From an uncultured Nitrososphaerota archaeon (GTDB taxonomy: Archaea; Thermoproteota; Nitrososphaeria; Nitrososphaerales; Nitrosopumilaceae): a DNA stretch of 24,858 nt. Location: positions 1 to 24,858 of the forward strand of contig CAWGPD010000005.1 of assembly GCA_963824385.1 (NCBI GenBank), in the 5' to 3' direction. Shown one piece after another: positions 1,475 through 22,492 of the stretch; position 1 is the first letter of the stretch, and every line of letters begins with the position of its first letter. A program made the translations under genes and the position numbers. The notes under the pieces are model-generated. The model saw only the letters and a program-made list of their open reading frames with translations. It was not told the origin of the DNA and ran no database searches.

Positions 1475-1702
1475 ATGACAGAGAAACACAATATCATCCA
1501 TATTGACGAATCAGACCGAGGCAGTTGTTATTATTGCGGTAGTCCTGCATCCATCAAGGTTGGTATGTGGTCTGAACTAGCACCTACAAAGGAAGAAGAT
1601 GAAAAACAGAGCTGGCGTGCTGTTCTCATATGCAAGGAATGCAATAGTAAACATAGCTGGGTGGACGAACAAGGTTTACCAGACACCTATCTTGGATACT
1701 AG
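1475..1702 (+). CDS. Small zinc-ribbon protein (CxxC...CxxC)
   Basis: 75 aa with CYYC and CKEC; TATA-like TTTATTAA at 1431-1438. Confidence 0.7.
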   Translation: MTEKHNIIHIDESDRGSCYYCGSPASIKVGMWSELAPTKEEDEKQSWRAVLICKECNSKHSWVDEQGLPDTYLGY

Positions 1703-1728: not shown

Positions 1729-1853
1729 AAGTCTTACAGTTTTTGAACTAACAGTTAATCCGAATCCAAGAGATTTTGTGAGTAAAATTTGATACAAAAT
1801 GTGCAGTAAGCTTATCTGGGTAGCTACAAAACTCCCTCTCTTAATTTTTTATT
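1729..1853 (+). repeat. Copy of the intergenic element also at 7344-7497, lacking the left arm
   Basis: 1730-1781 matches 7377-7428 at 48/52 nt; CTACAAAACTCCCTCTCTTAATTTTTTATT resembles ATACAAAACTCCTTTCCTTAATTTTTTATT at 7466-7495. Confidence 0.92.
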
Positions 1854-4132
1854 CTCTATGAGGTATTTTTATCACAAATGTGGATGGCAGTTTTACATGT
1901 ATTGTCCATCCATGTTGTTCTATTAGGTTCCTACAGGTTGGTAATCCAAGACCTGTACCTGATCTTTTTGTTGTAAATAGCGGTTCAAAGATATGTGATA
2001 ACACCTCAGGTGATATACCGTTTCCAGAATCTGAAATTTCTATCACATCACCATCAAATTCATTTCTGATCGCCACAGTGATTTTGCCTTTATTGGCATC
2101 GACTGCCTGAATTGCATTGTTAATTATATTTTCAAAAACGATTTCCAATTTTATTTTATCACAGTCTACCAGTAGATCATTGTTAGGCAAAGTTATCTCG
2201 ATATTATCAGGCAATATTATTTTATCAACGCAAGAGTTTAGAATTTGTAATATTGAATTAGACTCTTTTTTGATATCAGTAGATCTGACAAAATTCAATA
2301 CATCTTCAATCTGGTATGATATTCGCAAAGCAGATTTATCGATCATGTTAATTAGAGATAATTCTTTTTCAGTCATGTCTTGTTTACGCATTATTAACAA
2401 TTCGGCGGCATTGTGAATTACGCTTAGAGGACTTCGTATATCATGCGAGAGTCTAGATGATAGACTCACCTATTGTTGTTAGTCTTTTTGTCTTTTCTTC
2501 CTCAAGTGCTTCCCTAGTACTAAAAATTTCGGTCATATCTCTTAGGGAAACTGTTCTTCCTATCACCTTGCCTGAATCGTCATAAAAGTTTGCTCCGCTA
2601 AGAAGGGTAGGAAATTCCGAACCGTCTTTTCTTGTCAACCAAATAGTTTGATTTATGATTCTATCAGTCTTTTTCCATTTCTCCATTCCTTTTGATAATT
2701 CCTTGAGGCTTTTTTTGGATGTATGTTCAAAAATGGATTTCCCGATTACTTCATCTTTTGTATAACCTAGACTATTTGTGTAATTATCATTGCAATCTAG
2801 TATGATTCCATCTTCAGAAATAGAACGTAGAAGATCAGGTGCATACTCGTAAAGACTTCGATATTTCTTCTCTGTTGCAGAGAGAATCTCATAGGTTTTT
2901 CTTAGTTCTTCGTATTGGTCTAGTGCACGCTTCTCTGATAATTCTAGTTTCTCAACTTCTACAAGTTTTTCTCGTGCGGCCTGTATGTTTTTAATCATGT
3001 GGTTAAATGACCTGCCAAGTTCTCCAAATTCATCAACAGAATCTTCCTCCACCATCGTTCCAAAACCTTTTGCAGATACTTGCTCAGTTGCTATTTTTAG
3101 TCTAGTAATGGGCTCTGAGATGAACTTGGATGCAATCAATGCAAAAACCATCACACTGACCATAGTTATTGATACAAGTACCAGTATTCCATTGCCCAGT
3201 GTGGCGATAGGTTCTGAACTTTTAGCTAAATTGTAACTCAATGCCCCAATGAAGATGATCGGAATTATAGAGGATATCAGAAATAATGTAATTAATTTTG
3301 TTTTCAATCTAACAGATCTAATAGTTTTCTCCATAGAATAATGGGATTTCAAAATCACTAGTGTTATTCCAGATAAAATAAACAATATGCTAGTATGAAA
3401 TGCCATTCCAGTACTCAATCCGGGTATGTAAAAGTAGAGAAACGATAAATTCGTAGCATATCCGATAAGACCAAGACCTCCAGATGACAGTAAAACTAGA
3501 CCAATCCAAAATGAGGGCTTTTTTGATTTTATATAATTGGACAGAGAAAATATTCCAGCCGTTACTATTAGAATAAAGTCTGCCATTGTAGCTATTGACG
3601 GTCTTCCTAGAACAGAGGTGTTTTCGTTATGTGATTCTTTTACAAATAAATTCTCGATTCCTGTGTATATGCCGGTGAGATTGGATACAAGTAATGTAGC
3701 CATAAACAGAAAAATCACCAGACCTGATGCCGAGATGGCAATTTCGCTTAGACCAAGTCTTCCTTTTTGCATCTTTGCAATAAAATATAGAACAATCCCA
3801 CTGAAAATAAAAGATGCCGAAGTACTAAATTTCATAGTTACTGCATGAGGTAATACTTCTTCCAAAGGTACTACATTGAATACCCATCCAATTGTGACCA
3901 ACATTCCTACACCAAAAATTATTATTGCCAAAATTTTTGCTATTTTGATTTCTAGTCCTTCCATTTGGCAACCAATTTTTTCATCATGCTGTACACTAGT
4001 ACGATATTTTGATATTTTATCGTACAGGTTTTTGCATTTTTTGTTTTCAGAATTTTTAATTTCATCATTGTCAGATTTTAATAATTTATTCTCATCATAG
4101 TCAAGACTCCCATCACTGGATTTATCAGTCAT
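1849..4132 (-). CDS. Membrane sensor histidine kinase (multi-TM, HAMP, PAS, HisKA, HATPase), one apparent +1 frameshift near 2464
   Basis: ORF 2453..4132 has TM helices, HAMP (DEFGELGRSFNHM) and PAS; ORF 1849..2469 has SHDIRSPL, NIINNAIQA, DSGNGI, GTGLGL. Removing one base gives TTIGELSSRLSHDIRSPL, about 760 aa. Confidence 0.92.
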
Positions 4133-4221
4133 TTCTCATGTTATAGCTAGTACAAAACGGTATATTGTGCTGTTTGTTCAAAAAAAACATACTTTGAGTA
4201 AATAAGGAAATTGGTTTATCT

Positions 4222-4237
4222 GAGTCTTACAGGACGC
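4222..4237 (+). repeat. GAGTCTTACAG core repeat copy
   Basis: GAGTCTTACAGGACGC, preceded by AATAAGGAAATTGGTTT, which resembles the A-rich arm. Confidence 0.85.
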
Positions 4238-4312
4238 ATTTTGTCACTTGTAATCAAAATAATCATTGCATGATGTATTCTAACATATTACGTTCTGTGT
4301 CTGGTTGTCATT

Positions 4313-4543
4313 CTAGACGGATCTGAAGATTAGTGCAATATACCCGATTAGCACTCCGGCCCATATCGTACCTGCACCTTCCCAGAATGCAAGTTGATTG
4401 GTGCCGCCTCCATATCCTCCACTTTGTGGATGGATTACGAATATTGTCACTAGGCAGCATGCCAGCATCAATGCTACTCCTATTGGCAGATATCCATCAT
4501 GTCGTTTTCTTTGTGTTTCATACGAACTTGTGTATGATGACAT
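4313..4543 (-). CDS. Small two-TM membrane protein (76 aa from ATG 4543)
   Basis: Two hydrophobic segments separated by a Gly-rich loop; the ORF-track extension to 4681 looks non-coding. Confidence 0.6.
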   Translation of the reverse strand: MSSYTSSYETQRKRHDGYLPIGVALMLACCLVTIFVIHPQSGGYGGGTNQLAFWEGAGTIWAGVLIGYIALIFRSV

Positions 4544-4757
4544 GGTGAATAATACGTGATTCAAAGATATACGGATATCGAATCTGAGACAGTTCATTTT
4601 ACATGTAATGTAGAACATTTGTGAAGTAAAACGTATGATCTGATGATGAAGGATTATGCCACGGCAGAGCCTAAAATTCATTGGTCAAACTTTGGAACGA
4701 ACTACAGAAAATCTATCCCTTTCACTATTTCTTAATAGTTTGAGTGTCGTATGATAA

Positions 4758-5183
4758 TTGAGTCCTATGTTTGCAAGGATACTTGTGGCAGTCGATGGTT
4801 CGGAATCTGCAAAAAAAGCATTTGAAAAATCAATCTACCTTGCTCAAAAATGTAATCGAAAGCTAGATCTGGTTCACGTTGTAACATGCGAACTTGGTGG
4901 AGATAGTACCATCATTTATGATCTGTTAGATGAGGCCAAGATAAAGGCTAAAAAAATGTTGAAAGAATACAAAATTGAGGCCTCTAAAAATAACATTCCG
5001 TTGGAAATCACGATAACACAAGGAGATGCAGCAAAGATCATAATTGAATTTTCAAAGAAGAACAAGTATGATCTTATAATCATGGGAACTCGTGGAAGAA
5101 ATGCCTTTGAGGAATTGTTACTTGGTAGCGTCTCGTTGAAAGTTATGCATCATGCAATTTGTCCAGTAATGGTAGTAAGATAG
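4758..5183 (+). CDS. Universal stress protein (UspA family)
   Basis: ILVAVDGSESA and DLIIMGTRG...LLGSVSLKVMHHAICPVMVVR. Start may be ATG 4767. Confidence 0.95.
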   Translation: MSPMFARILVAVDGSESAKKAFEKSIYLAQKCNRKLDLVHVVTCELGGDSTIIYDLLDEAKIKAKKMLKEYKIEASKNNIPLEITITQGDAAKIIIEFSKKNKYDLIIMGTRGRNAFEELLLGSVSLKVMHHAICPVMVVR

Positions 5184-5391
5184 TGTATTTGGAATGTTTA
5201 CCTTTGAGAGTCATTTATTTTCTTGATCATTGTGTTCTTTTTCTTTTAATTGGAATGTATTTGGCCTTATGGCAAAATGTGAATTGTACCATCATCAAAC
5301 CAGTTACAGTCACAGAGTTCCTGAGAATTTTTTCCAATTTGCTTCATGCATATCATGGCTACTCCCTTATGATCATCTTTTGAATGTCCGC

Positions 5392-5402
5392 ATGTCTTAC
5401 AG
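5392..5402 (+). repeat. Degenerate core repeat copy (ATGTCTTACAG)
   Basis: 9/11 match to the core, intergenic, followed by TTCAAACTGA, similar to TTGAACTGA and TTCAAACTAA after other copies. Confidence 0.6.
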
Positions 5403-5593
5403 AAATTCAAACTGATGAAATCCTATAACCGAATTTATTATAACCAGAAGTTTTATGGACAATTTCCAGTGATTGTTTCAATGAGATAATTGATCTTCCA
5501 AGTTCTTAAAACTTTACTACAGCAGCATGTATTCCCAAGCAAATCGGAGGTAAACCATTTTTACGGATTGTCGATAAACTCGTTTGGAGAATT

Positions 5594-5622
5594 AAAATAA
5601 AAAAAGGAAAAGGAGTTTTGTA
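5594..5622 (+). repeat. A-rich arm AAAATAAAAAAAGGAAAAGGAGTTTTGTA
   Basis: Similar to 7344-7373 and to the reverse complements of 1825-1853 and 7467-7497; last 13 nt identical to 6149-6161. Confidence 0.85.
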
Positions 5623-5623
5623 A

Positions 5624-6104
5624 CTACTCTGAAATTGTAATGCGAAAGATTTTAGCCTCTTGGTCAGGGCAGTCATTCTTGCCTCTAGGAAGGTGGCCGA
5701 TTCTTGTCAGCAACATCCATGCCGCTCTTTACCTCACCAAACGCTGTATACTGGCCGTCAAGGAACGTGCTGTCACCTGTTACGATGAAAAACTGTGAAC
5801 CTGCACTGTTTGGGTCGTCGGACCTTGCCATGGAAACAACGCCTCTCTGGTGAGGTTTGGAATTAAATTCTGCCTTTATTGCATATCCAGGTCCTCCCAT
5901 TCCCCAACTGCTTTTGTCTGGTTGTTTTGTATTTGGATCTCCGCCCTGAATCATGAATCCGGGTATTATCCTGTGGAAAAGTACGCCATCATAAAAATTG
6001 GACTTGGCCAGTTTGACAAAATTCCTTACGGTCTCAGGAGCATAATTTGGTAATAGTTCAAAAACAATGTTTCCAAAGTTGGTCTCTATTGTAGCTTGGG
6101 GCAC
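5624..6104 (-). CDS. Cyclophilin-type peptidyl-prolyl isomerase, one apparent +1 frameshift near 5701
   Basis: FHRIIPGFMIQGGDP, SMARS.DPNSAGSQFFI, FLDGQYTAFGEV. Removing one base extends it to DKIGHLPRGKNDCPDQEAKIFRITISE*, stop at 5624-5626. Confidence 0.95.
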
Positions 6105-6148
6105 GCTTCACAAACAGCCATTTTATCATAAGAGTCTTTCTTCATTCC

Positions 6149-6179
6149 AAGGAGTTTTGTAGCGAGTCTTACAGAACTC
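6149..6179 (+). repeat. Arm end fused to core: AAGGAGTTTTGTAGCGAGTCTTACAGAACTC
   Basis: Exact core at 6164-6174; same arrangement as 7361-7386. Confidence 0.9.
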
Positions 6180-6195
6180 AGGTTTCAAACTAATT

Positions 6196-7254
6196 TTATT
6201 TAGATTTTAAAAGTCTTACAACAAAAATAGTTCCACTGGCGCTAGTCGATTTTACCTTTACACTACCACCATGCTTGCGCATTATAACATCACTTGCAGG
6301 CAATCCAAGACCGGTTCCTATCATCCTTGTTGTAAATAATGGATCAAATATTTTATCTAGCAAATTTTGTGGGATTCCTGTACCTGTGTCTCTCATTTCT
6401 ACTTCAACATCAGTTGCGTTTTCTATTATCTTGATGTCTATTCTGCCATTATTTTCCATTGCTTGGATTGCATTTAAAATTAGATTTACAAATACTATCT
6501 CAAGTTTGTTTGGATCACAGAGTGCTATTACATCATTATCTGGCAGGTTAATTTGTATACTCTCTGGAATTGTTATTCCATTTACAGTATTTGTAATTAT
6601 GTCTAAAATTGAACAAAGTTGTAATGCTAATTCAGGAGATCTTACATATTCCATCACTTCATTTACTTGGTGAGACATTCGATCAACTGCACGGGTCATC
6701 ATGTCAACGTGGTGAAATGCTTCTTTTGAAACAAGGTTTTTTGATTTCATAAGCTCGATGCTATTTTTTACTATGTTCAGTGGGTTTCGAAAATCATGCG
6801 CTATTCTTGCAGTAAGTTCTCCGAGTATTGTCATTTGTTGAAGCTTAAGATTACTTATCAATTCCCTTGCATTTGTCATGTCAGATATGTCCCTTATCAC
6901 ACTATTACTACCAAGCAAATTTTTGTTCTCGTCATACAGGCTAGACGCACTGATTAATGCAGGAAATGTACTACTGTCTTTTCTTTTCATTATGATCTCC
7001 CTGTTTGTTACACTACCTGTTTTTTTCCATGTGTCAAACGAGTTTTTCATTGCAGGTATGCTAGAACAATGAACGTGCTCAAAGATGGAAGCGCCTATTA
7101 CCTCTTCTTTTGCGAATCCCAGATCTTTTGCATATGATCTGTTACATGCAATGATTATGCCGTTAGTATCTATGGTTCTGAACATTACTGGAGAATCTTC
7201 ATAATGATTCTTGTAAATTACCTCATAAGGAAAATATTGATTATCTTTGGACAT
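6196..7254 (-). CDS. Cytoplasmic PAS histidine kinase
   Basis: PAS domain, AHDFRNPL, NLILNAIQA, DTGTGI, GTGLGL; no TM. Start set at ATG 7254 (ORF open to 7308). Confidence 0.93.
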   Translation of the reverse strand: MSKDNQYFPYEVIYKNHYEDSPVMFRTIDTNGIIIACNRSYAKDLGFAKEEVIGASIFEHVHCSSIPAMKNSFDTWKKTGSVTNREIIMKRKDSSTFPALISASSLYDENKNLLGSNSVIRDISDMTNARELISNLKLQQMTILGELTARIAHDFRNPLNIVKNSIELMKSKNLVSKEAFHHVDMMTRAVDRMSHQVNEVMEYVRSPELALQLCSILDIITNTVNGITIPESIQINLPDNDVIALCDPNKLEIVFVNLILNAIQAMENNGRIDIKIIENATDVEVEMRDTGTGIPQNLLDKIFDPLFTTRMIGTGLGLPASDVIMRKHGGSVKVKSTSASGTIFVVRLLKSK

Positions 7255-7343
7255 GATTTTATGAAAGATTTTCTGGCTTTTAATAGATTGTATCACATTT
7301 TTATACAAAAATGATGATAAAAATCGATTACAATGTTCGGATC

Positions 7344-7497
7344 AAAATAAAAATTAAGGAAAGAAGTTTAGTAGTGAGTCTTACAGTTTTTGAACTGACA
7401 GTTAGTCCGAGTCCAAGAGATTTTATGAAAACATAGTATGATAGAGATAAGCTGAATCGAAGTAGATACAAAACTCCTTTCCTTAATTTTTTATTTT
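7344..7497. repeat. 154-bp element with imperfect ~30-bp terminal inverted repeats (MITE-like or recombination-site-like)
   Basis: Left AAAATAAAAATTAAGGAAAGAAGTTTAGTA vs reverse complement of right AAAATAAAAAATTAAGGAAAGGAGTTTTGTA; core at 7376-7386. Confidence 0.85.
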
Positions 7498-7593
7498 ATC
7501 TTATTGTTTCATGTCTTTAGAACTATAATTTATTTTCAATAATTGTTTCAGTTGAGGGAATTAAATACATCTTATAATTAGGCTTGCCTAAGA

Positions 7594-9114
7594 ATGATAT
7601 CAAAAACCGTTATTTTATTTGGCATAATCATCGCACTCTCATCTGCTCTGACAGGAGTTGTTGTCTATCACTTTACGTCAAATTCAAATCAGGTTGCGAT
7701 GGTAACCAAGACACCTACACCTATTGTATTACAAGGTGTAACTAGGACCTATTACATGGCAGCAAACGAGGTAAACTGGAATTATGCTCCGTCCGGTACA
7801 AACCTGATAACAGGCAAGCCTCTTGCAAATGATTCTGTAACAGCACTCTATACACAAAATGGAGTAGACAGGATTGGTAGTGTGTATCTAAAGTGCCTCT
7901 ACCAGGGATACACGGATGATTCCTTTACAACACTACAAAACCGAACTGCCGAGTGGCAACATCTTGGCATACTTGGACCTGTGATTCATGCAGAAGTTGG
8001 TGATACCATCAAAGTAGTATTCAAAAATAATTGCAGAATTCCTGTCAGCATACATCCACATGGAGTTTTGTATGACAAGGCCTCAGAGGGTGCACCATAC
8101 AATGACGGTGTGCCAGATTCTCAAAAAGCAGGTGATGTAGTACCACCTGGTGGCAACTTTACATATATCTGGAATGTGCCAGAGAGGGCAGGTCCTGGAC
8201 CACATGATCCAAGTTCTATACTATGGATGTATCATTCACATGTAAATGAAATAACAGATACAAATGCAGGACTTGTCGGACCTATTATAATAACAAGAAA
8301 TGGAGAGGCAAATCCTGATGGCACTCCAAAAGGTGTGGACAGGGAGTTTGTTACTTTGTTTACCATATTCAATGAGACTCAAAGTCCTTACTTGGCAAAT
8401 AACATCAAGACATTTACTGGCGAGAACATGTCGCAGGTAAACGAGACTGACCCGAATTTCTGGGAAAGCAATCTCAAGTATTCCATTAATGGGTACATCT
8501 TTGGAAATACTCCTGGACTTGACATGCAACAAAATACTCATGTACGCTGGTATGTGGCAGGCATGGGTGGCGAGAGCGATTTGCATGCACCACATTGGCA
8601 TGGAAATACATTGTTAATTGACGGCATGCGCACAGACATGGTAGAACTTCTTCCAATGAGCATGAAAGTGCTAGATATGTACCCTGATAACGTTGGCACC
8701 TGGCTTTTTCACTGCCATGTAAATGATCACATCCAAGGCGGAATGCTGGCACTATATACAGTTGAGAAAAATAATGGGACCCAAGGCACCAATACATCTG
8801 GAGAGAATCTCAAAATTGGATTAACAACTGATACTGCAAATCCAACTACTGGTCAACCAACTAACCTCAAGGTGGATTTTATCGACAGTCAAACAAATTC
8901 AATTGAGGAGCACGTTGACTACAAGGTTTCAATCCTCCAGGGAACAACACAGGTGTTCTCCACCTCTGTCTCACATACTACAAATGGTTCTGTCACTATA
9001 CCATACCAGTTCCAAAATGCAGGAGCTTACCAGATAGTAGTTGAGGTGGACGGGGTTTGGTTCCTGCCAGCTTCAGAGACAGCGCAATTTCCAATCAATG
9101 TTTCAAATTCATAA
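7594..9114 (+). CDS. Membrane-anchored two-domain multicopper oxidase with extra C-terminal beta-rich domain
   Basis: N-terminal TM/signal; Cu motifs HPH, HSH, HAPHWH, HCHVNDHIQGGM (type 1 site only in domain 2). Confidence 0.92.
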   Translation: MISKTVILFGIIIALSSALTGVVVYHFTSNSNQVAMVTKTPTPIVLQGVTRTYYMAANEVNWNYAPSGTNLITGKPLANDSVTALYTQNGVDRIGSVYLKCLYQGYTDDSFTTLQNRTAEWQHLGILGPVIHAEVGDTIKVVFKNNCRIPVSIHPHGVLYDKASEGAPYNDGVPDSQKAGDVVPPGGNFTYIWNVPERAGPGPHDPSSILWMYHSHVNEITDTNAGLVGPIIITRNGEANPDGTPKGVDREFVTLFTIFNETQSPYLANNIKTFTGENMSQVNETDPNFWESNLKYSINGYIFGNTPGLDMQQNTHVRWYVAGMGGESDLHAPHWHGNTLLIDGMRTDMVELLPMSMKVLDMYPDNVGTWLFHCHVNDHIQGGMLALYTVEKNNGTQGTNTSGENLKIGLTTDTANPTTGQPTNLKVDFIDSQTNSIEEHVDYKVSILQGTTQVFSTSVSHTTNGSVTIPYQFQNAGAYQIVVEVDGVWFLPASETAQFPINVSNS

Positions 9115-9149
9115 AAAATGAAAAATTGAGTTCAAACTTGTGAGGGTTC

Positions 9150-9164
9150 GAGTCTCACAGGACT
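9150..9164 (+). repeat. Core repeat variant GAGTCTCACAGGACT
   Basis: 14/15 identical to 9758-9772; intergenic. Confidence 0.85.
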
Positions 9165-9216
9165 TTAATCTATTGGTAGGAAGATTAAAGAAAAGCTCTG
9201 CTAATTTATCTTTGAT

Positions 9217-9582
9217 ATGCAAAAACCAATACCTGAATTAGAATCAATTTGTAAAAAAGTCGTTGAGTTGGATCCCAATGTTAGATTTACAGGAATAGTT
9301 TCTACTAAAGGTAAGCTCTTGGCGTCGCACAAAAAAGGAGGAATAAAACTACATGTAAATGAAAAAAATCATGAAATGTTATTCATGGGACTTGCCCTCA
9401 AGGAGAGGATGCGACAAGATTATGATGAACAACTTGGTCCTGTGGACTATACAGTATCACATAGGGCAAAATGCGTAATAATTGGTGTTCCTTTTGAGAA
9501 AAACATACTGCTCATATCAGGAGAAAAAGATTTGGATGTAACAAAGATTTCATCTAAAATATTGCAAATGCTCAATGCCTAA
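9217..9582 (+). CDS. Small roadblock/sensor-like thaumarchaeal protein (DUF6659-like)
   Basis: LDPNVRFTGIV..KGKLLA...RMRQDYDEQLGPVDYTVSHR pattern recalled from this family. Confidence 0.7.
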   Translation: MQKPIPELESICKKVVELDPNVRFTGIVSTKGKLLASHKKGGIKLHVNEKNHEMLFMGLALKERMRQDYDEQLGPVDYTVSHRAKCVIIGVPFEKNILLISGEKDLDVTKISSKILQMLNA

Positions 9583-9606
9583 GACTATAAGCAAAAATGA
9601 AAAAAT

Positions 9607-9748
9607 TGCAGACTCGGTCGATTCCTGTTCTAAGGCAATAACAAAAGACCCTTAGAACACGAACCGCTTGATGTTTGTGTTAGTCTGCACAATCTATTAC
9701 GTGATACGGATTCAAAAGATTTTGTTTGTTTATTTTGAAACAAACAAA
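9607..9748. other. Nested inverted repeats: structured RNA or terminator candidate
   Basis: Stems 9607-9614/9682-9689 (8 bp), 9615-9620/9660-9666, 9626-9635/9650-9659 (10 bp), 9721-9731/9738-9748 (11 bp). Confidence 0.6.
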
Positions 9749-9757
9749 GAAAAATCA

Positions 9758-9772
9758 GAGTCTTACAGGACT
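9758..9772 (+). repeat. Core repeat copy GAGTCTTACAGGACT
   Basis: Exact 11-mer core, intergenic. Confidence 0.88.
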
Positions 9773-9974
9773 AGAGTATTCAATGGTTTTAAGCTAGTGA
9801 GATTTGGTGACCAGCAAGCGTACAAAATATGCACAGTGCATAATATTTACTCCAGATATCTCGCGTACAACCACATTTACAGGGACATTTTCTTAGTTTC
9901 AATTTTTTATCCTATATATCATAAGAATGACTTGGGTATTTGTAAGATTATCTAATTTATCAATTTAACAAGAT

Positions 9975-10421
9975 CTAGTGAACAATGGTAACCGGGCAGG
10001 CAGCGTGTTCTGATACATGTCTTGCAGTACTTCCAAGTCTTTTTAGAGATGAAACACCTGTTAGCTTTCTGCTTCCCATTACCACTAGATCAATTTTTGA
10101 TCTTTTTATCTCTTTTAAAATGGCATCAGATACGTCATCATGAACAATTTTATAAAATGCCTTTGCGCCCTCCTCTCTGCATTTTTCTGTAATTTTTTTC
10201 ATCTCTTTTTCACCTTGTTCAGTTAAAGCTTTTACAACCTGCTGATAATTCATAACTGCAGTTCCTGAAAAAACAGAGTCACTTATTGGATAGTAGACAG
10301 GAATTACCATCAAGAGTTTCAGATCAGCATTAAAATTTCGTGCAATATCTTTTGCCAATTCTAATGCTTTTTTTGAAAGTGGTGAGCCATCATATGGCAC
10401 TAGAATATTTTTTAGTAACAA
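9975..10421 (-). CDS. Universal stress protein (UspA family)
   Basis: NILVPYDGSPLS and DLVVMGSR...LGSTARHVSEHAACPVTIVH. Confidence 0.95.
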   Translation of the reverse strand: MLLKNILVPYDGSPLSKKALELAKDIARNFNADLKLLMVIPVYYPISDSVFSGTAVMNYQQVVKALTEQGEKEMKKITEKCREEGAKAFYKIVHDDVSDAILKEIKRSKIDLVVMGSRKLTGVSSLKRLGSTARHVSEHAACPVTIVH

Positions 10422-10691
10422 CTAGAATAATTCCTTAACTTTACTTCTGTATGCTTCAACGATTTGTCCAAATTCTGTAAAGTCACTTGCAGATGGAGTT
10501 TGCATTCTGAAAGCAAGCTGAGCTACAAAGAGTGTAAACGCGTTTCCCATCATCATGTTAAAAGTCAATTCAGAGAGGTCTTGAACCGCAGGAAATGCCA
10601 CTTTTAGAAATGGCAAGTATGCCTTGGTCTGGTTTAACATAAGTTCCATGTTTTTTTCAATTGCTGCTTTTACCTCAGGCTGAATAGTCAT
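10422..10691 (-). CDS. Hypothetical helical protein
   Basis: 89 aa ORF abutting both neighbours (0 and 1 nt gaps), so probably operonic. Confidence 0.75.
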   Translation of the reverse strand: MTIQPEVKAAIEKNMELMLNQTKAYLPFLKVAFPAVQDLSELTFNMMMGNAFTLFVAQLAFRMQTPSASDFTEFGQIVEAYRSKVKELF

Positions 10692-10692
10692 G

Positions 10693-10899
10693 CTAATTCA
10701 CCGAGACGACCTGGTACGGTTTTGATTGATAGTGGGTAGAGCATAAAAACACCATTTCTCCATTTAATACCTTGGCTGTAATTGATATACCATTTAATTC
10801 TTTTTTACATATATGACATGTAAGCGGTTTGACATCAGATTTTATGAATTTTTTTTCATGTGAAAAATACAAGTCCTGAGCTATGAAACTGTCTGCCAT
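10693..10899 (-). CDS. Small zinc-finger protein (CxxC...CxxH)
   Basis: CHIC and CSTH; TATA-like TTTAATAA about 25-30 nt upstream on the minus strand. Confidence 0.72.
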   Translation of the reverse strand: MADSFIAQDLYFSHEKKFIKSDVKPLTCHICKKELNGISITAKVLNGEMVFLCSTHYQSKPYQVVSVN

Positions 10900-11020
10900 A
10901 TTTCATAAAAGACAGTTTCAATATTATTAAAGTGATCTTCATTATCAAGGCTGATTCCAAGTGGTTATCAGTTTTGATAATCCTGACAGAAATTTTATAC
11001 TAAATTAATGGATTATTGTC

Positions 11021-11470
11021 ATGACAATAGCTCGCGATATAATGTCAAGTAAAATAGTCACAATGGAATCAAATGTATCATCTACTGAAATTGCAAAGAT
11101 TATGGACAAAAACAAGGTAAGCAGTGTTATAATAACAAAAGATCAAGTACCAATTGGCATAGTAACGGAGAGAGACATGGTGTCAAAAATCGTTGCACAA
11201 AACAAGAAACCGTCTGAAGTAAAGACTGCAGAGATTACAGCCTCACCTCTTTTCATAGTAAGTTCACTTACACCTACAGATGATGTAGCAAAGAAAATGG
11301 TAGATAAAAAAATTAGGCGAGTTGTAGTAATGGATTCTGACCAGGCACTAGGAATCATAACGGTGACAGATTTTGTAAAGCACTTGCATGAGATGCTTTC
11401 AGATTCCGAAAATTACAACAAGATTCTATATCAGCATCTAATAGAAGACTGGGAATACTGGATGTCCTAA
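11021..11470 (+). CDS. CBS-domain pair protein
   Basis: ARDIMS, PIGIVTERDMV, GIITVTDF. Confidence 0.93.
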   Translation: MTIARDIMSSKIVTMESNVSSTEIAKIMDKNKVSSVIITKDQVPIGIVTERDMVSKIVAQNKKPSEVKTAEITASPLFIVSSLTPTDDVAKKMVDKKIRRVVVMDSDQALGIITVTDFVKHLHEMLSDSENYNKILYQHLIEDWEYWMS

Positions 11471-11595
11471 TCAGGACATAAATTTTTGTTAGTATAAAAT
11501 TTGAAATTAATGTATGAATCCAAGGATGGTTCTGGCATTACCATGTCTGATAATAGAATGTCAAGTTTTTATGTATCAGTTTCATACTGGAACCA

Positions 11596-12039
11596 TTGGA
11601 TAATTTTTCTGCCAAAGACATAATGAAGAATCAGGTTGTTACAGTTGATTCTGCCATGACAGTTATGGATACAGCAAAGATAATGGATGATGCAGGCATT
11701 GGCTGTGTTGTTGTTATAGAGAACAATATTGCAGTGGGCATTGTAACAGAGCGCGATTTTGTCAAAAGGGTTGTATCTCGTGCAATTCCACTGACAACTC
11801 CAATAAAAAAAGTAATGTCGTCTCCGTTGATTGTAGTAAATCCAGAAGAGAATATTTGGGAAGTGGCAGAACTTATGAAACAGCGAAGAATTCACAAGGT
11901 TCCAGTGGTATATCAAGATCTACTAGTTGGAATTGTAACAGCGACCGACTTGACTAAATTATGCAGCATTGGTTCTGATTCAGAGATGCGAAGGATAACA
12001 GACCAGATACTTTTGAGAATGAAGCCTGCAGACAAGTAA
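11596..12039 (+). CDS. CBS-domain pair protein
   Basis: AKDIMK, VGIVTERDFV, VMSSPLIVV, VGIVTATDL. Confidence 0.93.
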   Translation: MDNFSAKDIMKNQVVTVDSAMTVMDTAKIMDDAGIGCVVVIENNIAVGIVTERDFVKRVVSRAIPLTTPIKKVMSSPLIVVNPEENIWEVAELMKQRRIHKVPVVYQDLLVGIVTATDLTKLCSIGSDSEMRRITDQILLRMKPADK

Positions 12040-12045
12040 TTTAGT

Positions 12046-12915
12046 TTAATTTTTAACTATAGCGCGTACAATGTCAGTCTTTGTCACAATCCCTACCAAT
12101 AAGCTTGCCCTTGACAACTGGCAAGCCGCTGATTCCATTTCTTATCATCAAGAGCGAGACATTTGATACATCGTCTGATACATCTACAGTTACTGGGTTT
12201 GATGTCATAATATCAGTTGCAATAAATGTCAAAAGATAACTTAGTTGGTTTGAGCGATACTCTTTTGGATTTGTAGCCATCCTATAGTTTTCAACCTCAG
12301 TTGGATCTCCGGATTGTTTTAGCCACAGAGGCATCTTGGCAGGTATAAAATCTCGGTGAGTGATAATTCCTACAGGCTGTCTGTTTCTTTCTACAACTAC
12401 TCTAGATATTTTATTGTTGACAAGAACGCTTTCAACGTATAGTAGTGAATCAGTCTGGTTTTACTGTAATTACATCTCTTGTCATAATTTTAGAGACTAG
12501 TAATGGTTCTGTGGCTTGTGTCAAAAATACGGATGCCAAGTCTGTCTTTGTAATAATTCCAGCTAGTGTCTTGTCTTTGTGTAGCACTATAACAGAACTG
12601 ATTTTATTATCAAGCATTAGTTTAGCACAGTCGTATAACGTTGCACCTTCTGGAACAGTAACAAGGTCTTTAGACATAACATCAAATACGCGTGTAGCTT
12701 CAAGTGGTTTTGCATCAATTCTATAGATTGCCTTTACCAAGTCTTTTTCTGTCAGCATTCCTACTGGCTTGTCTTTTTCTGATACAATGAGTCGGCTAAT
12801 CCTGTGCTTTAGTAAGATTGCTCTTGCATCCAAGAGGCTTGTTCGTGGGGTTACTACAATTGTTTTTTTAATTACTTGATTTATACTGTCATTTTTTAGT
12901 TTCAATAATTTTCAT
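12046..12915 (-). CDS. Four-CBS-domain protein with apparent +1 frameshifts (about 12901, 12452, 12098)
   Basis: ORFs 12450..12905 and 12074..12334 join through DSLLYVESVLVNNKISRVVV..PVGIITHRDF and end VGIVTKTDIVRAIVKN*. ATG 12915 start needs a third correction, otherwise TTG 12905. Confidence 0.87.
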
Positions 12916-13037
12916 ATATTTTGGGTAGATTATAGGCTTTTTACAAATCTCACTTGTGATAACATTGTCAATACTTTCATAATTACAATCCAGCTACACT
13001 TTTGGTGATAATTTTCTAGGTTCTAATCCGGGTGAAT

Positions 13038-13228
13038 TCGGGTATCAACATGGGCTAATTTTGGACCCACTTTTCGTAAAATTGCAAAAATTGTAGTGGT
13101 GGTATTGAACTAATATTGCAATACCCATCAAAGGTATCATTACGGGTCAAACTATTCTAAGTTAGTAGATGGGTCTAACAGGATTCAATCCAACCTATGC
13201 AGATGTAACATGGGTCTAAAATTATTCC
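13038..13228. repeat. Left cluster of GGGTC-family repeats
   Basis: 13141-13182 matches the reverse complement of 22431-22474 (38/42 plus a 2-nt gap); 13200-13228 matches the reverse complement of 22455-22483 (25/29). Confidence 0.85.
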
Positions 13229-15349: not shown

Positions 15350-16099
15350 ATGATTCGAATAATCAAAGAACAAGAACAATACAAGGGAGAAAGTGACTGG
15401 TTAACAACATATCACCACTTTTCTTTTGGTGAATATTATGATCCAAGTAAAGTCAACTTTGGACCATTACGTGTCTTCAATGACGATATAATACAACCTG
15501 GAAAAGGTTTTGATTTTCATCAACATCAAGACATGGAGATAGTAACCTATGTGGTAGAAGGAGAACTTGAGCACAAGGACAATCTTGGAAATCATGGAAT
15601 AATACAACCAGGCGAAATACAGAGAATGTCAGCTGGAACGGGGGTATTCCATTCAGAATTTAACCATTCAGATGTAAAGCCACTTCGACTATTACAGATT
15701 TGGCTTTTTAGCAACACCAGAGGATTAAAGCCATCATGGGAACAGAAAAAATACACAAAAGATGATAGGAAAAACAAGTTACTTCCTATAATTAGTCCAA
15801 AGAACTCTTACCAAAAAGACAGACTTGCAATAAGCCAAGATGCTACTTTTTACATCTCAAATCTGGAAACAGGTAATGATCAAAACTATATAGTAAATAG
15901 AGATAGAATACTCTACTTGTTTGTAATTGAAGGCAAAATTACATTAAATGGCAAAGTGCTCAATACAAGAGACTCGGCACAGGTAGAGAATGAAGAGAAC
16001 TTGAAGATACAAGCTCAAAGAGATACTGAGCTTATCTTAATTGATCTGCCAATTAGATATATGAAAAATTCAGTGCCAGTGGAGGTTACACAAAAATGA
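15350..16099 (+). CDS. Pirin-family bicupin (YhhW-like)
   Basis: HHFSFGEYYDP, LRVFNDD, HQHQDMEIVTYV, HKDNLGN, MSAGTGVFHSEFN, LLQIW. Confidence 0.95.
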   Translation: MIRIIKEQEQYKGESDWLTTYHHFSFGEYYDPSKVNFGPLRVFNDDIIQPGKGFDFHQHQDMEIVTYVVEGELEHKDNLGNHGIIQPGEIQRMSAGTGVFHSEFNHSDVKPLRLLQIWLFSNTRGLKPSWEQKKYTKDDRKNKLLPIISPKNSYQKDRLAISQDATFYISNLETGNDQNYIVNRDRILYLFVIEGKITLNGKVLNTRDSAQVENEENLKIQAQRDTELILIDLPIRYMKNSVPVEVTQK

Positions 16100-16743: not shown

Positions 16744-16823
16744 GAGCATACTACCACTTTTCCTTTGGTGAATCTTATGATCCAAGTTATATCATAATGC
16801 GTGATAAAGTGGTACTTGTTTGA
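16740..16823 (+). pseudogene. Pirin 5' fragment forming a 27-aa mini-ORF
   Basis: 16753-16787 matches 15414-15448 at 33/35 nt; reads MRAYYHFSFGESYDPSYIIMRDKVVLV*. Confidence 0.7.
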
Positions 16824-22137: not shown

Positions 22138-22232
22138 AAAGTGGGCTCAAAATAGACTCTTGTACATGAACCTCCCGAGCCTGAACCATGACAAAATGAA
22201 CGGGTATCAAACTAATTTAGGCAAACCCACCC
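22138..22232. repeat. Degenerate GGGTC-family repeats
   Basis: AAAGTGGGCTCAAAATAG resembles the reverse complement of 13054-13073; CGGGTATCAA is identical at 13039 and 22201. Confidence 0.55.
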
Positions 22233-22279
22233 CCGGTACTCTACAAAATCAAAATTAGTTAGTACAGGGTATGTAATAC

Positions 22280-22430: not shown

Positions 22431-22492
22431 CCTATTAGACCCAACTACTAACTTGGAATAATTTCAGACCCGTATTTCATCTGTATTGGATT
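22431..22492 (-). repeat. Right GGGTC-family repeat, inverted relative to 13141-13228
   Basis: Minus strand reads AATCCAATACAGATGAAATACGGGTCTGAAATTATTCCAAGTTAGTAGTTGGGTCTAATAGG. Confidence 0.85.

Follow-up and report, generated by a model that had tools for sequence, protein, structure and literature searches.

The question raised by this locus is what the short repeated sites that punctuate its accessory genes are, and which enzyme could have acted on them. The window, that is, the whole stretch of 24,858 nucleotides analysed here, is the entire contig C5 (CAWGPD010000005.1) of an assembly from an uncultured Nitrososphaerota archaeon (GCA_963824385.1; 1.68 Mb in five contigs, C1 to C5, 86% complete). 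An initial annotation had described seven co-oriented GAGTCTYACAG sites dividing 8 kb of it into gene modules and had proposed a recombination system, possibly undescribed. From comparison with the rest of the assembly, with the genomes of relatives (G-numbers) and with individual loci (L-numbers), we favour the reading, at a probability of about 0.68, that the site mimics the end of a tRNA gene and that its arrays would be stacked by an integrase of the type that we call IntV. The genomes G011, G012, G019, G028, G034, G148 and G149 are unpublished; they enter as single rows only, and the main claims are independent of them.

All seven sites are present on the + strand and between genes, some exact and some variant, and those at 4222, 6164, 9150 and 9758 form the imperfect palindromes that had been described, each one base off GAGTC-N6-GACTC. 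The statement that no copy lies beyond 9.8 kb did not hold, since a degenerate eighth site occurs in the same orientation at 13171 and the array therefore continues past that point; the site at 5392 is weak. The exact 11-mer is found six times in the 1.68 Mb, five of them inside the 8-kb array. A scan of the whole genome, which had been recommended, was performed with a weight matrix trained on 64 sites of other genomes (strong, 17 bits or more) and gave 18 strong sites, against 0 in the reversed genome. None of the 18 lies inside an open reading frame (ORF), though ORFs of 100 amino acids or more span 75.7% of the genome. A two-mismatch scan of the window was marginal (19 matches versus a shuffled mean of 9.2, with 19 attained in 1 of 100 shuffles), and the motif AGTCTYACAGGA has 75 matches in 60 genus relatives, against 21 in the reversed control. 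Strong sites were found on both strands of contigs C1, C3 and C4, and strict neighbouring pairs in the fetched loci are co-oriented in 8 of 9 cases.

The behaviour of the sites is clearest at the locus itself, which comparison shows in three states: free of sites, carrying a single unit of about 48 bp, and filled with cargo between units. As anchors we took position 9830 on the right and, on the left, the small gene whose end is at 1702. They are separated by 44 bp with no site in G017 and G018, by 79 bp with a decayed unit in G060, by 92 bp with one unit in G025, by 2508 bp of different DNA between two junctions in G045, and by 8127 bp in the window; the length difference between the G025 and the pristine allele is the 48 bp or so of one unit. 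These five genomes are all those with adjacent anchors among 62 genus relatives, and in four more distant genomes the left anchor gene is located elsewhere. The left flank of site 1 is followed by other DNA in G018 (contig C80) and G045, the right flank of site 7 is preceded by other DNA in C1, G003, G025 and G045, and clustering of flanks across genomes returned more pairs that share one flank while the other switches at the core. A second copy of part of the array, 86-96% identical, lies on C1 and may be a duplication or a co-binned strain. There, 4668-6174 is joined directly to 7361-9136, which leaves out the kinase module flanked by sites 4 and 5 and retains a single site at the joint; homology to the window ends at 9136 and resumes at 9759.

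The cargo tells a similar story. The cyclophilin gene in module 3 is an extra copy, and a mobile one, with counterparts of 88-96% identity among unrelated neighbours in 14 other genomes (two of them, G012 and G034, unpublished); its left arm is present in 12 of the 14 and a strict right-hand site in 10, against 0 of 15 housekeeping cyclophilin loci. At 5590-5650 the stop codon of the mobile gene coincides with the right end of an arm of the L type described below, as if the gene had been captured at a core-like sequence in its own 3' end. Copies of the multicopper oxidase have other neighbours in C1, G045 and G060, and a copy of the DUF6659 gene in G045 begins at a site. With breaks falling at the core both in the allele series and in the C1 copy, the sites are very probably recombination joints, and the initial annotation's preference for polar recombination or insertion sites over promoters and terminators stands. 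Its view of the sites as module borders is upheld for most of them, with 5392 undemonstrated as a border and one C1 break, at 4668, falling off-site.

Two other explanations bear on these breaks. The motif could be a transcription-factor site, or part of a promoter or leader, that merely marks acquired genes; every strong site is intergenic, and four genomes have the motif lying across the leader and the first bases of tRNA-Pro(CGG). Nevertheless, gene directions inside the array are mixed, site orientation is independent of them, the distances from site to start and from site to stop vary, and flanks are swapped exactly at the core, which makes a regulatory motif very improbable. The apparent deletions could also come from homologous recombination or misassembly between repeats, given that C1 and C5 may be two co-binned strains and that the assembly does contain indel errors. 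Single-base differences from independent contigs (window 993, 1103, 2464, 4854-4858, 5701, 7454 and 12101) look like sequencing errors that split genes (Hsp20-like, kinase, cyclophilin, CBS). At about 2464 and 5701 one base is missing in the contigs of three of four runs, the fourth being without cover there, so the kinase split and the cyclophilin truncation at these places are probably errors of this kind. Against misassembly, however, the sequence common at joints amounts to only 11-25 bp, a contig from an independent run (X10 record 5948-7522) spans sites 4 and 5, other independent contigs span sites 2, 6 and 7, and the allele series is drawn from five other assemblies; we consider this explanation barely credible.

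The core 11-mer is part of larger units, a two-core unit of about 48 bp and an arm of 125 bp. In an alignment of 83 non-redundant matches, a few of which are chance hits in genes, the main core reads RAGTC-TTACAG-GAYTC, with a right extension that is often complementary to a tRNA T-loop, and in many matches an inverted second core (CTGTGA) follows about 25 nt later, giving the 48-bp unit. At module ends the second core often stands immediately before the next main core, as at 9128-9165, a junction that matches at 94% the one right behind tRNA-Ala(TGC) in G014. Folding of the units is inconsistent (z from +1.0 to -4.5 over 12 strands), and the units at 9150 and 9758 do not fold above shuffles.

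Sites 1 and 5 are fused to the 125-bp arm, which we call L. It is present in 32 of 150 family genomes, mostly in four genera, and the records of all 36 named loci bearing it are titled Nitrosotalea, Nitrosotenuis, Nitrosarchaeum, Nitrosopumilaceae or Thaumarchaeota, which suggests that the source of the window is an ammonia-oxidising member of this family. Across these 36, L has no recurrent neighbouring gene family. The right end of the L alignment is partly fixed by the search pattern used to collect the copies. RNAalifold gave no consensus structure for 50 L arms, a coding role was ruled out by stop codons (by eye), and an Rfam search of the window and five loci returned no score near the gathering threshold.

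The origin of the core is suggested by what L carries elsewhere. In place of TTACAG, L in most relatives has at its start a sequence complementary to a tRNA 3' end; in relatives L also adjoins a duplicated tRNA 3' end. When 50 L ends were compared with the tRNAs of the genome to which the window belongs, 17 matched at 11 or more of 13 bases (shuffle control over 42 rounds: mean 0.95, maximum 5), and for 36 the best match fell in one common register, in which tRNA ends have the form RARTC-N6-GRYYC, with RARTC on the T-loop side and GRYYC on the acceptor side. The lower strand of the site reads GAGTC-CTGTAA-GACTC. Judged by this alignment, the site imitates the T-loop/acceptor end of a tRNA in symmetrical form without belonging to a tRNA. 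No tRNA of the own genome ends in the site's sequence, and a T-loop-plus-site pattern occurs at 10 places in 8 of 301 genomes, none of them a tRNA by its flanks or by ARAGORN; the repeats in the array are not copies of a tRNA end.

Outside the window, 8 of 11 strong sites lie within 16 kb of a tRNA end and two more extend the same island, the majority being on the strand of the nearby tRNA. A second array, of five strong co-oriented sites behind tRNA-Ala(TGC), occupies C3:107.8-140 kb of the same assembly. The proximity to tRNA genes would also fit a plain additive island, in which ordinary elements integrated one after another and left the cores behind as decayed remnants of a single old attachment site, without a landing pad and with no exchange still going on. 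Several window sites are indeed decayed, tandem integration at re-used sites has been published for archaea (PMC6563490) and the same growth for tycheposon islands (bioRxiv 10.1101/2020.12.28.424599). Such an island is nonetheless distinctly unlikely here, as the core is unlike any tRNA end found and common to several genera, it is present at a locus whose ancestral state has neither site nor tRNA, and the cargo at the same unit differs between genomes.

A conserved locus in G058, G014, G015 and G009 (loci L148-L151) has sixteen bases of the site lying across the 5' end of tRNA-Pro(CGG), where they comprise the leader and the first three tRNA bases below a conserved promoter region. The overlap is one base shorter in the own genome (C3:41619-41630) and diverged in G051; the core may have arisen there, or the overlap may record an off-target event of long ago. 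The 3' end of the same tRNA carries CCATCG, the commonest core of one L subtype.

Which enzyme could recognise such ends? The initial annotation had placed no recombinase in the window, and the candidate does lie outside it: IntV, tied to the site's arm in relatives, is a divergent tyrosine recombinase. Its gene (reference L307:13087-14367, 427 amino acids) adjoins a tRNA, is directed towards it and runs into its own arm, which has the word TGAACTRACAG in common with L. An alignment of 28 sequences shows invariant R190, K235, Y314xxR317, H344 and Y352, in agreement with the R...YxxR...Y signature of pNOB8-type integrases (PMC8371274). The predicted fold (mean predicted local distance difference test score 70) matches XerA (5hxy, E 7e-7), Cre and the integron integrase (2a3v), and no solved structure matches IntV by sequence. 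Pfam recognises 1 of the 28 aligned members and the NCBIfam recombinase models none of three IntV proteins. A homologue at E 1e-40 or better occurs in 40 of 62 genus relatives.

IntV elements terminate in the L arm. What is joined to L, and to the arm that follows the integrase gene, is a tRNA end in some cases and the TTACAG core in others. L lies upstream in 14 of 27 IntV loci (one of the 14, L173, from the unpublished G011), on the strand of the gene in 14 of 14, and of the 9 loci with at least 65% identity to the reference, 8 have it. Upstream of IntV genes there are 19 unfused sites, every one on the opposite strand, and in L297 four sites lie within one 11-kb element. Complete tRNA-integrase-L elements occur at Val(TAC), Arg(GCG), Ala(CGC), Ala(GGC) and Lys(CTT); elements are delimited by a tRNA gene and a copy of its 3' end in L306, L307, L070, L310, L311, L314 and L327, and wherever a tRNA is in view at an IntV locus, L bears that tRNA's end. 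At the G045 locus, where no tRNA was called in 17 kb and the integrase gene is split in two in the assembly, TTACAG is the sequence to which both arms, L and the one behind the gene, are attached, and the right part of the unit lies beyond. In G025 an IntV element of about 11 kb starts precisely at the counterpart of window 13017 and reaches to an arm of the type present at window 13030; the window is without this element, and C1 retains a truncated L arm. Taken from these sequence associations, IntV is probably the enzyme that acts on the sites.

The same observations have to be weighed against a separate recombinase or transposase, similar to those of miniature inverted-repeat transposable elements or repetitive extragenic palindromes, that owns the 48-bp unit (ends TTACAGG.../...CCTGTGA, GANTC-like flanks) and moves the modules between units, IntV using the unit only as an occasional secondary target. 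In its favour, the unit, with its two inverted cores and near-direct 5-bp flanks, goes into the pristine locus as a single piece of about 48 bp, several modules begin with the unit's own arm instead of L, many sites are distant from any IntV gene, and the own genome is without a close IntV. It is at odds with the strict polarity of sites relative to the IntV gene (19 of 19), with the occurrence of both IntV arms fused to the core in tRNA register, and with the inconsistent folding of units and the unfolded window copies. Searches of the own, 86% complete genome returned no match for IS110, resolvase or PF00589, and the check for a linked HUH transposase suggested by the initial annotation came back empty as well (Y1, PF01797, 0 matches). 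We regard a separate enzyme as unlikely.

Other partners for L and other roles for the site were considered and set aside. L is absent from 30 genus loci with PF00589 hits (about 1.5 kb on each side). The L067-type integrase, in 20 loci of relatives, has one full L, which was traced to an IntV gene further up; the L184-type integrase follows L in four loci but has a far-end arm of different sequence. Viral contigs contain neither the L pattern nor a relative of the L067 integrase, and their 10 matches to the site pattern, in unrelated viruses and mostly inside genes, were read as chance. A rolling-circle nick site and a role of topoisomerase IB were left without support. A joint between 1810 and 7457 is explained by the genome's third L copy, which maps onto both window copies.

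Several findings weigh against an IntV-built array of tRNA mimics. The 27 IntV loci were not collected blind: 7 were found via L, sites or tRNA cores and 6 more were chosen because the contig was known to carry L, a site or the locus studied here, and among the 14 chosen without prior knowledge, several on short contigs, only 3 have L. Some genera in which no L turned up have IntV relatives as well. The own genome, 86% complete, lacks a close IntV; the one relative in it, at 45%, lies at tRNA-Val(TAC) and has the other orientation. The empty allele of the G045 insertion was not found among 13 loci, and the overlap with the 5' end of tRNA-Pro(CGG) is left unexplained by the model. At the level of modules, the C1 copy starts at 4668, where no site is listed and a half-site-like arm adjoins, and the strict right-hand site is absent in 4 of 14 mobile cyclophilin copies. 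Some kinase and oxidase modules copied elsewhere are bordered by a site on one side or on neither, an example being the 92% copy of the 6164-7386 kinase module in G060, with a decayed unit at one end only. Tidy cassettes are also contradicted at 5392, where no comparison shows a break and the C1 copy and the G045 homologue read through. The search for circular modules, another check proposed at the outset, yielded no module-removing joint at a site in the contigs of four runs; contigs drop rare variants, and one of the runs covers only about 4-13 kb and is by itself no evidence.

The 45% relative (C2:315423-316757) stands directly behind tRNA-Val(TAC) in an element that runs off the contig; it was missed by PF00589 and detected, at C2:315.4 kb, by tblastn alone.

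Returning to the IntV reading, a sequence of steps can be proposed. The 48-bp unit would first enter a degenerate chromosomal half-site through its second core; the pristine allele contains such a half-site, and we give this planting step slightly less than an even chance. Incoming circles, some of them headed by L and without an integrase, would then recombine at the main core, each insertion adding another co-oriented core, and recombination from core to core would remove or exchange modules. The enzyme would be supplied in trans by a passing or neighbouring IntV element, and arrays would therefore outlast it as orphans, as in the window. Since L arms that are almost identical are found with many 6-nt cores of differing sequence, such an enzyme probably does not need the cores to match; Tn916-type integrases and IntI tolerate unmatched cores too. 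Modules 1 and 5 look like IntV elements without the integrase. The other modules, bounded by units only, would require core-to-core recombination, to which the C1 deletion and the G045 insert point. That the 48-bp unit is a self-seeding landing pad, planted at ordinary intergenic sites by a promiscuous integrase, we put forward tentatively, as somewhat doubtful.

If it were so, the pad could be filled, emptied and reshuffled without matched cores, and ammonia-oxidising archaea would have an independently evolved, integron-like gene capture whose traffic consists of integrase-less modules (sensor kinases, copper oxidase, cyclophilin, stress proteins), served by a compact integrase whose target could be re-pointed by a six-base core. 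Soil ammonia-oxidising archaea are rich in acquired accessory genes, and the system offers a concrete route of acquisition, with a defined site, a defined arm and a candidate enzyme missed by standard profiles, at one locus caught empty, single-site and filled. The gain and reordering of sensing, copper and stress genes thereby becomes testable by plasmid assay, and IntV directs attention to a family of tyrosine recombinases that are unusually lax in the choice of targets.

Coordinates of the island's features are collected in Table 1.

Table 1. Sites, arms, cargo genes and flanks of the array in the window
Feature	Position	Strand	Evidence or remark
Left conserved flank, gene of small Cys-rich protein	1475..1702	+	joined to right flank in G017, G018, G060, G025, G045
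Site 1, left arm and 6-nt core TTACAG; left array edge	1729..1739	+	25 bits
L arm copy 1 (125-bp end arm of integrase elements), fused to site core	1740..1853	+	
Cargo: HAMP-PAS histidine kinase, one gene	1849..4132	-	Pfam
Site 2	4222..4237	+	23 bits
Cargo: 122-amino-acid ORF (-) without Pfam match; universal stress protein (+)	4313..5183		Pfam
Weak or decayed site, boundary role not demonstrated	5392..5402	+	14.4 bits
Travelling cyclophilin unit: arm 5590-5632, gene on -, arm and site 4 at 6149-6179	5590..6179		
PAS histidine kinase module (gene 6196-7308, -), between sites 4 and 5	6164..7386		absent from C1 copy
L arm copy 2, fused to core of site 5 (7376)	7387..7497	+	
Cargo: two-domain multicopper oxidase	7594..9114	+	Pfam
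Site 6, full junction: inverted second core 9138-9143, then main core 9155-9160	9128..9165	+	
Cargo: DUF6659 protein	9217..9582	+	Pfam
Site 7 and rest of ~48-bp unit (second core about 9795-9800); right array edge	9758..9805	+	
Right conserved flank: universal stress protein and CBS-domain cluster	9975..13015		
Attachment junction: decayed tRNA-Arg(GCG)-like core and another element's arm	13018..13083	+	
Eighth site, degenerate	13171..13191	+	20 bits

Beyond the array, a 9.3-kb block between 13149-13228 and 22431-22489 has long inverted repeats with site-like cores at its ends. Its genes (by eye) are pirin, azoreductase-like, isochorismatase-like, amidohydrolase-like and a transporter; it is absent from C1, and parts of it precede a 9758-type site in G003. 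Within it, 15408-15455 and 16747-16794 form a relic duplication, an 85% copy of the start of the pirin gene behind the next gene. The arm of another integrase family, at 13018-13083 and 22150-22240, matches L180 and several places in the own genome, which suggests that more than one integrase family built the island. The ORFs at the contig end (23649-24698) resemble, by eye, the start of a terminase-like or helix-turn-helix cluster at C1:56.5-58.5 kb and are possibly an integrated element. In G015, L073 has six copies of a repeat of about 516 bp within a large ORF region (100-2700).

How far, then, is the system a known one? The suggestion that it is undescribed stands in part. Its basis, integration at tRNA 3' ends, is published: thaumarchaeal integrated elements carry tyrosine integrases, use tRNA 3' ends with cores of median 17 bp and down to 8, form tandem arrays through a re-used site, and have cargo rich in UspA, CBS and multicopper oxidase genes (PMC6563490). 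The present system is alike in integrase type, target, short cores, tandem arrays and cargo. A common non-tRNA site, an arm element or arrays of integrase-less modules are not described in the available text of that study, which also reports that integron-like elements were not detected in thaumarchaea (Krupovic et al., 2019; PMC6563490), and five motifs of the present system have no match in its four supplementary files. A dispersed non-tRNA landing pad with an assignable enzyme, the part that may be new, is not described in the literature searched, which covered few subscription papers.

The tycheposons and additive tRNA islands of Prochlorococcus likewise grow by one site-specific integration after another, copies of att recur between their modules, and most of the integrases have disappeared; their repeats are partial copies of the island's tRNA, of about 40 nt, and growth takes place at the tRNA (10.1101/2020.12.28.424599, available text). 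The present repeat, in contrast, is not a tRNA copy, is identical across islands and tRNAs, and can seed an array at a tRNA-less locus.

Integron attC sites have the consensus RYYYAAC ... GTTRRRY. A pair of this kind, 40-145 nt apart within about 80 nt on either strand, accompanies none of the eight window sites, in agreement with the earlier statement that they are not attC. The IntI model TIGR02249 had no match over its cut-off in any of five genomes, nor in 14 control genomes. Likeness to integrons and to clusters of attC sites lacking integron-integrases (CALINs) lies in the co-oriented sites that separate unrelated genes, the single tyrosine recombinase, arrays that outlast the enzyme, and two kinds of site, long arm-bearing and short (10.1101/2022.02.06.479319); the main text of that archaeal integron study, as available, has no mention of Thaumarchaeota or Nitroso- taxa. 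Unlike integrons and CALINs, the present system has no IntI, no attC consensus, no consistent hairpin in the 12 strands folded and a tRNA-targeting integrase as its candidate enzyme, and its genes lie in both directions with their own upstream regions.

The pdif/dif modules of Acinetobacter share sites with a 6-bp spacer, small accessory modules, either gene orientation and an enzyme in trans; pdif sites alternate in orientation (PMC13141974, available text), whereas all eight window sites are on the + strand. As for Xer-like candidates, PF00589, as noted, finds none in the own, 86% complete genome, and the best matches in the genus are weak for Xer. Archaeal integrases of the pNOB8 type share the R...YxxR...Y pattern, a gene left intact after integration and tRNA 3' targets, and their secondary sites can fix genes in the host (PMC8371274, available text). 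IntV differs from them in going largely undetected by the Pfam and NCBIfam profiles, in a gene that runs towards the tRNA and overlaps its own arm, and in the various tRNAs used by close relatives. The system therefore works like an integron array but is not one, and it is best filed as accretion by a tRNA integrase with a non-tRNA mimic as the repeated target.

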